DNA from: a virus
Lineage: Duplodnaviria; Heunggongvirae; Uroviricota; Caudoviricetes
DNA: 13,618 nucleotides
Direction: 5' to 3' (one strand)
Virus record (IMG/VR): IMGVR_UViG_2690316086_000023
Shown one piece after another: positions 9,001 to 12,000 of this stretch. Within the stretch, counting starts at the first letter, position 1, and the number at the start of each line of letters is the position of its first letter. Position numbers: made by a program.

Positions 9001-12000
9001 AGTGGTTTCACTGCTTGCGTATGACCAAAGATGAACGTGTCCGCGCCTTTGATTTCTTTCACGATCCCGTCTTGTGAGTTGCTGATTCGTTCGCGGTTCC
9101 AGATTACCTGCTGATGATCAACTGGCTTTCCAAACTCGTATTTATCACAAGGATAATCGGCGTGGCAGATGACATATTTTTTTCCTTTACTCACCAGTTC
9201 GATGATTAACGGAAGTTCATCTGCTTTATGGGCAAGAGCTTTAGCCAGAATTTCTTTGTCGTAATCGAGATTAAAGAACCAGCCACCGCCATTAAGCAGC
9301 CAGTGATTGACGTTTCCACGCTCTGATAAGCCATCAATCATCATTTGCTCATGGTTTCCACGTACAGCTCTGAACCAGGGGAATGTGATTAATTCCAGGC
9401 ATTCTACGTTCTCTGTACCGCGATCAACCAAATCGCCCACCGAGATAAGCAGGTCTTTTTTGGTGTCGAATCCTATCGTCTCCAGTTTTTTCATCAGGTT
9501 CGTGTAGCATCCATGCAGATCGCCAGCTACCCAAATATTTCGGTATTTGCTGCCATCAATTCTTTCGTAGATATTCATGCAACCTCACTTCTGCTGTTTC
9601 GCAGTTTTTTAAGTTTCTGTTGATACTCCGCCTTGATGGCCCTGCACTCTTCGACAGTCCAGCGATAGCGGTTATGGTTTGATTCGATTTCCTCTACTGC
9701 TTCCTGCCCGATGCGGCTAATCAGTTCGACGCGATACGGAACGAGATTTCCGCTTTTGTGCTGGTTGCACACCACGCATTGCTTGTGAATATTGCGTTCA
9801 TCAAATCGGAGTTGAGGTGCCGCAGCAGTTGTCCGGTAATGTCCGGCATCCCACTGAGCAGACGTGAGTGTTCCGCACGAGATACATGGTAAGTCGCGGT
9901 CTCTTTCTCTGATGAAGGCGTTTACGGCTTGTTGGGCTTGTTTAATCCAGTAACTGCGGGGCTTTAAGGCGAGTTTTCGAATCTTAAGTTTATCTTTCTG
10001 TTTCTGCTCCTCTCGTCGTCGTTTCTTCTCTGCTGCTTTTTCCGCTTTTTCGCGTTCTTTACTTCGTCGTTCGAGTGCTATCTTGGTTCCACAAATCTCA
10101 TTACACCAATATTGATTTTGATATTTTGGTATAAACCATTCATTGCAACATTTACATTTCCTTCGATAGATTCGCATAAGTGCTCCTTTCGTTGCCGGAA
10201 AAATCACCGTAATACTTATCTCGGGCTTCTTCAGCAACTAGTACCGCTAACTCCAGATCATCAAAGCATCCGAAGTGTTTACTCTTGCCATGGAATCCTA
10301 GCCTAACATTCCATTTTTTCTGTCGTTTGTGCCAAGTAACCCCTCTGCAACCTGATTTGCTATTCTTTCGGATCCTTATATTTCTTGAATTTTCTATTGG
10401 CAGACATTCTCTTAAATTTTCTGGCCTATTGTCGGTCCTAATTCCATTAACGTGGTCAATTTGACCAGCAGGCCAACGATTATGAGTTATGTAAAAAACT
10501 AAGACGTGAGTTTTATATCTACGCCCATCTATCATGATCATTGAATAACCGTTGGAATCAAAAGCTCCAGCAACACTATTTAATGCTATCCTTCCCTGAG
10601 TGGGAACTTTCCATCTAAATACCCCGGTAGATTTATCGAAACTTAGTAACTCAAATATCCTTTTAACAGTTAAATCTTCTCTTTTACGGTTACATCGTCT
10701 TCGCGCTGGTTTAGCCATCGCCTTCTTCCTCCGTAATGGTTTTCTGAATTTGGCCACCTGAACAGAGCTCACCAAAGCTATGGATGTCGGTATTTCCACA
10801 ATACCAAGATGGCGAAAATAACTGCATGATAAGCCTCAGGGAAAAGGGAAGACACTACCCCCGATAATTCAGAAACAAATCGAAATACATGAACTAAAGA
10901 AAAAATCACAACAAATAGAAATAGAAATAGAAATAGAAATAGAAATAGAAATAGAAATAGAAATAGAAATAGAAATATTAAAACAGACCACCACATTCCT
11001 GATGTCATACTCACTAAACAATTTTTCGACAACATGGTAGCTCATAGCACGTTATCGTGTAGACACCCTCTGCTACGTATTCGGTGTTCAGTGCAATATC
11101 TACAAATACTGGAAAAATCTAAAATCGAGGCAAGTTTTTAGTGATAACTATAGTTAGACTATATTGACGACCTGATGTGCTGTATGTAATAACTAACAAA
11201 AAATATTTTCCATGGGGTTTTTTATTTTAATGAAATGCAAAATATTTTTATCAATAGTTAGTATTATGGAAAACCATTAATTCAGGAGGAAACTTGATTC
11301 CAAATTCAACTTCAAATAAAGGTTATGTATGCATTGACATGCAGTGTTCGTCAACCTCTGAACCAACAGCTTCTACCTCCAGCAACCGGAGTATTAAATT
11401 AGCCGCTTCCACAAATGTATATCCGATAACAAGAAACGACTCCGAGCTCACTCTGAACGATTTTCTTGATAATAGCTCTTCTACGTCATCATTGGACTAC
11501 ATTAATGAATTGGGTTCTCAACTGACGTTAAATGATTTTCTTGACAACATAAAGACAAATGAGGTGGATAGAACATGTACGGATGTGGTAATTAATATCC
11601 CACAAGAGATACAAACAAATACACAGGAAAATGATTTGTTATTATCCGATAAAAATAATTCAATATGCATTGAAATCGATGAAAGAATTACAAAAATCCT
11701 AACATGCAAGCAAAAATATCAACTGGACAGCATCATTCATGAAATTATACCAAAAGAGAATGAGAGTGCAGAAACTGTTCTCCATCTTATGAGAGTTCTG
11801 AACTATCAATATCATCAGGTATATAATCAGTCAGGATGTTTTTATAAAGCCTATATGGCCATACACAATAAAATCGAACAGATACTTCCATATGCGTTCA
11901 GAGCCGGAGGCGGAATCAGCATTCACTTGCTCATACAGGCATTATTTTTTAATGGCGACTATAACAAATCACCTTCACAGTCTCAACAACCATCTTTATA

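Follow-up and report, generated by a model that had tools for sequence, protein, structure and literature searches.

A candidate HNH_3-AP2 homing endonuclease cassette lodged in the 5′ end of ninG in lambdoid prophages

How can an endonuclease gene occupy the start of another gene while that gene still encodes its product? This question is raised by a 13,618-nucleotide (nt) stretch of viral DNA (record IMGVR_UViG_2690316086_000023, hereafter called the window), wherein an open reading frame (ORF) for an HNH-type endonuclease begins with the ribosome-binding site and the first codons of ninG (rap), and a second ninG start is found near the end of the endonuclease ORF. A sequence-only reading of this DNA had proposed that a free-standing homing endonuclease gene invaded ninG together with a cleavage-resistant copy of its target segment. 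We have compared the locus with endonuclease-free ninG alleles, using phage lambda (J02459) as the reference empty allele. The results make it probable that a free-standing HNH_3-AP2 homing endonuclease is lodged in the 5′ end of lambda-type ninG as a self-contained cassette of 596 base pairs (bp) that spreads by double-strand-break repair. All of the genes concerned are carried on the minus strand.

The limits of the cassette are defined by homology to the empty allele on both sides. The left flank shared with endonuclease-free phages (10690..10731, minus strand) includes the final ninF codons with the Shine-Dalgarno sequence (GAGGAAGAAGGCG), the ninG ATG at position 10718, ninG codons 1-9, and two bases of codon 10. 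In this region, BLAST aligns the codons for MAKPARRRC and the preceding GAGGAAGAAG to lambda 42419-42460 with matches at 40 of 42 nt (E=7e-15); the lambda ninG annotation has one additional ATG, and thus reads MMAKPARRRC. Beyond this flank, the foreign block (10094..10689, minus strand) stands in place of 64 bp of lambda-type ninG (lambda 42461-42524), which refines an earlier estimate of about 600 bp spanning roughly 10091-10689. Homology to lambda ninG restarts at 10093 with TGT GGA ACC AAG (C-G-T-K), and the right flank (10093-9575, minus strand) corresponds to lambda 42525-43043 at 97% identity (BLAST) as far as the ninG stop codon. Homology on the left comprises 42 nt in the window and the entire ninF gene in 22 loci, and on the right it comprises at least 519 nt of the ninG body.

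The same breakpoints are given by a second empty site, which is located in another prophage of E. coli O157:H7 strain 106 and in which the lambda-type 64 bp is present. This site is 98.9% identical to the window along 1,603 bp downstream, a region that includes the ninG body, a phosphatase gene, a Q remnant, and LpxR. Its genes are ordered ninE-ninF-ninG-phosphatase-Q remnant-LpxR. The left junction (…CGATGTAA followed directly by CCG) is kept in 61 cassette loci, with a single substitution in one.

As read from these alignments, the endonuclease ORF (10152..10718, minus strand; 188 amino acids (aa); ATG at 10718 and TAA at 10154-10152) is fused in frame to the ribosome-binding site, ATG, and first nine codons of ninG, just as the sequence-only reading had described. 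It possesses neither a translational start of its own nor an intergenic position, and lies inside the ninG coding region. It might be argued that this arrangement is an artefact of annotation, such that endonuclease translation truly begins at another position and either the MAKPARRRC match or the second ninG start arose by chance. Indeed, some depositors have chosen other starts for this gene, yielding 201 aa in phage AU6Stx1 and 215 aa in the cluster representative, and where the cassette adjoins an unrelated moron the open frame extends upstream as far as a GTG at 10799. However, the ATG at 10718 with its GGAGG is the sole start common to both upstream contexts (ninF and moron), and no in-frame ATG exists between residue 1 and the conserved N-terminal domain of the endonuclease. 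The 40 of 42 nt shared with lambda, and the fit of NinG from its second start to the PF05766 profile from position 5, also argue against coincidence, and we consider an artefact of this kind exceedingly improbable. Because of the in-frame fusion to the ninG start, the endonuclease in a normal lambdoid phage would be made from the early-right (nin) transcript, with its synthesis coupled to ninF translation.

The second ninG start provides the likely answer to how NinG is made from this locus. Its Shine-Dalgarno sequence, AAGGAG (10183..10188, minus strand), is embedded within the 3′ tail of the endonuclease ORF, 5 nt upstream of an ATG at 10177 that itself precedes the endonuclease stop codon, and so creates a 26-nt overlap of two different frames. 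Direct reading of the sequence bears out this part of the original description. The hybrid ninG ORF that begins here (9575..10177, minus strand; 200 aa) has a substitute N terminus and a lambda-type body. Its product matches PF05766 with a score of 282 bits over profile positions 5-192 of 193, and a full-length NinG, predicted to be made as a single polypeptide, is still encoded. The cassette also explains the aberrant NinG N terminus found in carrier prophages.

The substitute 5′ end of ninG (10094..10177, minus strand) consists of 28 codons and represents a divergent, AT-rich allele of the four-cysteine module at the NinG N terminus. A tblastn search against 2.3 Gb reveals homology to lambda NinG at 61.8% identity (E=8e-6), and positions 10177-10094 are thus a true homologue of the ninG 5′ end, a similarity on which the sequence-only reading depended. 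All four zinc-ribbon cysteines are retained, with the arrangement CX2C...CX3C in the window compared to CX4C...CX3C in lambda, and the segment rejoins the resident ninG at CGTKIALE, again in agreement with what had been proposed.

The term “recoded,” which had been applied to this N terminus, is not apt. Codons and amino acids do differ from those of lambda, but the differences are not those of synonymous recoding. Among the 32 codons that can be aligned with lambda, 18 specify the same residue (about 56% aa identity), and 14 of these 18 are the same codon. Moreover, the two segments differ by three codon indels and share 58% nucleotide identity when the common CGTK is included. These characteristics point to a heterologous ninG allele, most likely the ninG 5′ end of the original donor phage itself.

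Both parts of the block differ in composition from the DNA around them. The endonuclease part has a guanine-plus-cytosine (GC) content of 39.1% and the substitute 5′ end one of 28.6%, compared to 50.5% in the replaced lambda segment and 48.7% in the ninG body. Given that GC content is low throughout the 596 bp, the block looks like one AT-rich foreign unit. The two parts are also inherited as a unit. When loci encoding the substitute peptide were collected from 241 million metagenome records and from IMG/VR, the endonuclease was found directly upstream, with identical codons, in 58 of the 58 that were testable. A degenerate-codon search of metagenome and viral contigs, and a search of E. coli genomes, found no substitute 5′ end without the endonuclease. 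Thus, the cassette allele is unlike the empty allele at the presumed target, and this difference is co-inherited.

Two other types of nuclease residence were considered and ruled out. An intron-borne endonuclease was rejected on finding no Rfam family at E≤1 within 9400-11300. Likewise, an intein was rejected, as the endonuclease ORF ends at a stop codon and its frame differs from that of the downstream ninG.

The protein encoded by the cassette had been assigned to the HNH_3/AP2 endonucleases, and this assignment is upheld by the domain searches. The HNH_3 catalytic motif (PF13392; residues 68-107; 10398..10517, minus strand; E=4e-11) scores 42.7 bits, well over the cutoff of 24.8, whereas Pfam AP2 scores 22.1 bits, under its cutoff of 33.3. 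The protein also matches PHROG 99, “HNH endonuclease,” with E=about 7e-71. An alignment of the endonuclease with 12 relatives reveals that D88, H89, N101, and N110 are invariant.

Based on the sub-cutoff Pfam match and on structural modelling, we predict an AP2-type DNA-binding domain at residues 123-171 (10206..10352, minus strand). In a model generated by AlphaFold2 (predicted local distance difference test (pLDDT) value of 85 overall), the C-terminal domain (pLDDT ~90) superposes on the AP2 domains of AtERF1 and TEM1 with a root-mean-square deviation (rmsd) of 1.1-1.3 over ~50 alignment columns, with Foldseek E values of only 0.1-0.4. For AtERF1, the rmsd is 1.3 over 51 columns and the Foldseek E value is 0.095. 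A sequence search of the PDB with the endonuclease gave a weak AP2 match only. The best fold match in the PDB to the entire model is I-HmuI, but this match is weak overall (Foldseek template modelling (TM) score of 0.37-0.39, E=7e-3) owing to the elongated, multi-domain architecture of the protein.

The ends of the protein appear to be derived from its position in ninG. Homologous endonucleases carry no nine-residue N-terminal extension; specifically, the starts of the 12 relatives align to residues 11-15 of the window protein, and their C termini fall near residue 176. The mean pLDDT for residues 1-10 is 60, and values for residues 178-188 are below 50. These low-confidence ends of the model correspond to the NinG-derived head and to the tail whose reading frame crosses the new ninG start. 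Because the relatives start at residues 11-15 and the head is poorly modelled, the first nine residues can be regarded as a ninG-derived appendage that is not native to the family.

Relatives of the endonuclease occur in 3,048 phage records, often in multiple copies per genome and often annotated as homing endonucleases. Thousands of them reside in lytic phages of Enterobacteriaceae (Jersey-like and T5-like), and the nearest are only 44-47% identical to the window protein.

Three HNH_3-AP2 paralogues are present in the early-right region of one lambdoid prophage of E. coli Br_190_kylling (locus L004, NZ_CP182387; 1-554, 1259-1786, and 3017-3583). Besides the ninG cassette itself, these comprise one paralogue located upstream and another situated between ninB and a Dam methylase gene, which share 37% and 40% identity, respectively, with the window endonuclease. 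This suggests that members of the HNH_3-AP2 family have invaded nin regions repeatedly.

If the cassette is a mobile element, then its presence or absence should vary at exactly this site, as the sequence-only reading had anticipated. The cassette is found in 538 of 5,426 complete E. coli genomes, with every copy at coverage of at least 80% and identity of at least 95%, and 926 E. coli genomes contain an uninterrupted lambda-type ninF-ninG junction, although over-sampling of enterohemorrhagic E. coli (EHEC) clones inflates these genome counts. The E. coli strains that carry the cassette are mostly EHEC. Additional copies are present in four phage records (including the Shiga toxin (Stx) 1 phages AU6Stx1 and SH2026Stx1), in 60 IMG/VR contigs, and in 7 metagenome contigs, and the endonuclease protein cluster contains one sequence named from Salmonella Infantis. 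The block is complete and at least 98.8% identical in 60 loci.

These near-identical blocks occur in diverse settings. Among 61 loci, a genuine ninF precedes the cassette in ~22 and an unrelated moron in ~39, the latter including the window, and ninH is present downstream in some carriers and absent in others. Endonuclease-free ninG alleles with these breakpoints are found in lambda, in 81 IMG/VR loci, and in hundreds of E. coli genomes. Across the 81 endonuclease-free IMG/VR loci, the 96 nt containing the replaced 64 bp carry only 0-3 differences from lambda. Given this near-invariance, the replaced 64 bp is predicted to be a suitable conserved target.

Some individual loci depart from the common arrangement. 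A partial copy (H194) that resembled an intermediate was ruled out as such, given that an IS3 insertion lies between its endonuclease gene and ninG. In E. coli PK8241 (locus L003, NZ_CP080139; 3550-4763), an IS3-family element separates the endonuclease stop region from the substitute ninG start; its BLAST matches overlap by 3 nt, which is consistent with target duplication, and the endonuclease ORF is lengthened to 191 aa. In two IMG/VR loci (L006 and L007), ninG codon 36 is changed from GAA to TAA just past the junction (…IAL*), such that NinG is cut to 35 aa, and the endonuclease ORF is intact.

Of 62 loci, 59 retain an undamaged endonuclease ORF. Variants of this ORF include 13 that are synonymous and 12 that are nonsynonymous (ratio of nonsynonymous to synonymous polymorphism (pN/pS) ~0.25), and among 60 copies none of the 12 nonsynonymous variants falls at D88, H89, N101, or N110. 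Judging from this pattern, the ORF is under purifying selection. Such selection would also be consistent with a domesticated nuclease, wherein the HNH-AP2 protein serves the phage or its host, perhaps by excluding rival lambdoid phages, by helping recombination alongside NinG (Rap), or by AP2-mediated regulation. The retention of the gene in ~10% of complete E. coli genomes and its translational embedding in the nin operon fit such a role, and in other systems the AP2 domains of homing endonucleases have been recruited as regulators (PMC10448857). However, the gene is absent from most lambdoid phages, and its only conserved partner is ninG. Its relatives are scattered, multi-copy, and variably present, as is typical of selfish endonucleases. 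Furthermore, exclusion achieved by cutting the ninG genes of rival phages would be mechanistically equivalent to homing with marker exclusion. We therefore view domestication as very unlikely.

A rival that deserves greater weight is that the cassette is a passive mosaic module. In this scenario, a single event of illegitimate recombination brought in both the endonuclease gene and its adjoining heterologous ninG 5′ end, and these then spread only through ordinary homologous recombination between prophages and EHEC clonal expansion, while the nuclease is inactive or does not target ninG. Lambdoid nin regions are highly mosaic, and elsewhere the boundary between ninF and ninG adjoins other genes, such as a KilAC antirepressor gene or, in rusA-type phages, a gene for a NUMOD4-HNH protein. 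In addition, many copies of the cassette reside within defective prophages, one O157:H7 chromosome carries both the cassette and an unconverted empty site, and a gradient of co-conversion is not seen. Despite this, three characteristics of the cassette are poorly accommodated by passive spread. First, nucleotide diversity among 56 loci is 0.004 in the block, compared to 0.022 in the 100 nt of ninG nearest to it and 0.04 in the entire ninG body, and the cassette is thus 5- to 10-fold less diverse than its neighbour despite its many backgrounds. Second, as described above, the ORF remains largely intact with a low pN/pS, and its catalytic residues are conserved. Third, the block is located inside a gene and precisely swaps a conserved 64 bp, which is what a homing element needs and for which a neutral moron would have no reason. 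On balance, we consider passive spread unlikely, though far from negligible.

The population data are best treated with restraint. Thirteen of 57 cassette loci match an endonuclease-free locus exactly over the first 200 nt of the ninG body, and a neighbour-joining tree built from the flank requires ~19 changes between presence and absence of the cassette, compared to ~44 with shuffled labels. Because the resolution is low and recombination is rife, we take the tree and the diversity values to suggest only that one young block resides on many backgrounds.

The foreign composition of the block, its complete and near-identical copies on diverse ninG backgrounds, and its unbroken linkage to the substitute segment support the footprint of a free-standing homing endonuclease that the sequence-only reading had recognised in ninG. 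We propose that the element would act during lytic growth, when its phage shares a cell with an endonuclease-free lambdoid genome. The enzyme would then nick or cut the lambda-type 5′ segment of ninG, probably inside or beside the 64 bp that the cassette replaces. Repair from the cassette-bearing genome, by way of the ninF/ninG-start flank and the ninG body, would copy the target-free ninG 5′ end along with the endonuclease gene. This would constitute intronless homing in which co-conversion of the flank is obligatory. A single illegitimate join would most likely account for the in-frame junction after codon 9, and would have given the cassette its lambda-type homology on the left side. We infer that lambda-type ninG would be cleaved, that the substitute allele would be resistant, and that homing would take place, but the enzyme might instead cut some other site.

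Several observations weigh against a homing endonuclease that is actively spreading. Ordinary homologous exchange among lambdoid phages could put one block on many backgrounds, and recombination among lambdoid prophages together with EHEC clonal expansion, whose effect on genome counts was noted above, could yield much of what is seen in the population data. In E. coli O157:H7 strain 106 (NZ_CP028698), the cassette at 1.23 Mb coexists with the intact empty site at 3.80 Mb, which has not been converted. This coexistence indicates that the element is inactive between prophages that are resident, repressed, or defective; it is what a nin operon silent in lysogens would produce, and is equally compatible with an inactive enzyme. 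The prophage that hosts the window is itself defective, as it carries IS1203 and is missing replication and structural genes. Moreover, a promoter scan of the minus strand upstream of the endonuclease gene revealed no promoter-like site, and no co-conversion gradient is evident by the right junction, where polymorphism is back within 5 bp.

The searches for a donor also weigh on this side. A word-indexed search of 5.8 billion proteins identified no relative of the endonuclease at 47-98% identity. For the substitute N terminus, tblastn against 50,697 phage records gave a best match of ~60% identity, and a 40-aa query against the database of 5.8 billion proteins was uninformative, as nothing but fragments of the same allele came back. 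Phmmer, run exhaustively against 1.84 billion cluster representatives, yielded no relevant match, and the degenerate-codon pattern search of metagenome and viral contigs returned cassette copies only. A scan of one genome per species identified a single relative, from Planctomycetota, at 39% identity. The donor phage lineage was therefore not found in these searches, and our account of how the cassette originated is one that we infer.

Why might a homing endonuclease be arranged in this manner? One possibility, which we offer tentatively and find slightly easier to doubt than to accept, is that the locus represents a further route by which such an enzyme can reside within a protein-coding gene. 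The element would take over the start of its host gene, supply a target-free 5′ segment in return, be active in lambdoid and Stx phages, and drive both its own spread and the co-conversion of nin markers through the EHEC prophage pool. If this is true, then a coding region can be occupied without splicing by capturing the start of the host gene and bringing a replacement segment that resembles an exon. If the enzyme does cut lambda-type ninG, it would offer a ready-made system for intronless homing in lambda, the most tractable temperate phage. With such a system, the ways in which selfish nucleases skew inheritance and give rise to mosaic boundaries could be tested directly in lambdoid and Shiga toxin phages, and the cassette concerned marks ~10% of complete E. 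coli genomes.

The region upstream of the cassette in the window has features of its own. Homology to ninF ends ~14 nt upstream of the ATG shared by ninG and the HNH gene, and beyond it lies a moron (10732-13066). This moron includes a 590-aa ORF on the plus strand (11294-13066) that belongs to PHROG 9230, a family of unknown function, and in which no Pfam domain was found. In E. coli O103 ML775, IS1203 adjoins the moron with this 590-aa ORF, and the replication and immunity genes of the prophage are missing. Between the 590-aa ORF and the endonuclease gene is a perfect tandem hexamer, AAATAG x 10.8 (10913-10977). An 85-aa ORF that runs across the hexamer (10778-11035, minus strand) encodes an FLFLFL repeat, matches no family, and is unlikely to be genuine.

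In other phages and prophages, the point at which ninF ends and the next gene starts is a general mosaic junction, as in loci L207 (NZ_CM166349; 2575-3084) and L208 (NZ_CP077491; 1280-2001). A gene for a NUMOD4-HNH endonuclease begins exactly at the expected ninG start in a rusA-type prophage, and a KilAC antirepressor gene lies upstream of ninG in Stx1a prophages.

Downstream of ninG, a gene for a lambda-type Ser/Thr phosphatase (9578-8913) follows directly, such that the ninG stop codon TGA (9577-9575) overlaps the phosphatase ATG (9578-9576). In lambda, ninH intervenes between these genes. Comparison with lambda 43040-43246 indicates that ninH (lambda Nin 68) is absent from the window, whereas the cassette phages AU6Stx1 and that of E. 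coli Br_190_kylling retain it. The phosphatase gene is followed by a 72-nt remnant of an antiterminator gene (~8916-8845), by a gene for the lipid A deacylase LpxR on the opposite strand (7742-8701), and then by a complete gene for the Q antiterminator (6578-7351; Pfam Phage_antiter_Q). The LpxR region is a virulence-type moron at the expected position of Q. Further along, downstream of the lysis cassette and a Rha-family regulator, is a gene of the type III secretion system (T3SS) effector family NleG (582-1214, minus strand; Pfam T3SS_NleG, E=1e-41). In a matching genome, the NleG gene lies beside fragments of tail-fibre genes, which indicates a defective, effector-carrying prophage.

How does the ninG cassette compare with systems already known? 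RefSeq and GenBank already annotate an “HNH endonuclease” gene beside that for “recombination protein NinG,” and thus the existence of the gene is not new. In the literature searched, whose coverage excludes most subscription journals, we found no description of this architecture, with its captured ninG start, its replacement of 64 bp by a heterologous 5′ end, and its complete linkage.

The closest functional parallels are the free-standing homing endonucleases SegF, SegG, SegB, and MobE of T-even phages, which carry out intronless homing or marker exclusion (PMC2988022; PMC2790892, PMC2330249). As in those systems, the endonuclease gene of the cassette is outside any intron or intein, is present or absent between homologous phage genomes, and adjoins a conserved gene. 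The co-inherited flank likewise differs from the endonuclease-free allele, and spread is expected to occur by double-strand-break repair in mixed infection. In contrast to the intergenic genes of T-even phages, the ninG cassette lies within the 5′ coding sequence of the gene that it presumably targets and uses the ribosome-binding site and nine codons of that gene. It also brings a substitute 5′ coding segment with a new start. Furthermore, its host is a temperate lambdoid phage, and its putative nuclease is of the HNH_3-AP2 type rather than the GIY-YIG type of the Seg enzymes.

With regard to the enzyme, HNH-AP2 proteins are known as a family of homing endonucleases (Magnani et al. 2004, as cited in PMC10448857). 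The window protein appears to share the domain order of this family and of I-HmuI (PDB 1U3E), which consists of an N-terminal DNA-contact region, HNH_3 with D-H...N...N, and, in the family, a C-terminal AP2 domain. The HNH-AP2 relatives are multi-copy genes of lytic phages, from the nearest of which the window protein is well diverged, as noted above. I-HmuI differs further in that it is intron-encoded and has a different C-terminal domain.

The fusion to a resident gene has a precedent in phage epsilon34, wherein the N terminus of the resident gene is fused in frame to an HNH endonuclease (PMC2629481). In this P22-like lambdoid phage, as in the window, the HNH ORF begins with the N-terminal codons of the gene that resides at that position. 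However, the epsilon34 case concerns the early-left operon and another HNH lineage, and a substitute 5′ copy of the interrupted gene was not reported there.

Endonuclease genes within coding regions are also known from phage Aeh1, wherein nrdA is split by mobE to give a gene in pieces. A comparable case is that of ShiLan, which represents the out-of-frame insertion of HNH genes in actinophage methylases (PMC11855218). In each of these, as in ninG, a gene for an HNH or Mob endonuclease is located within a coding region, and the function of the host gene is preserved by an unorthodox arrangement. The solutions differ, however. In the Aeh1 and ShiLan cases the host protein is split in two or an in-frame loop is left, whereas the hybrid NinG is predicted to be one polypeptide whose N-terminal 28 residues are heterologous.

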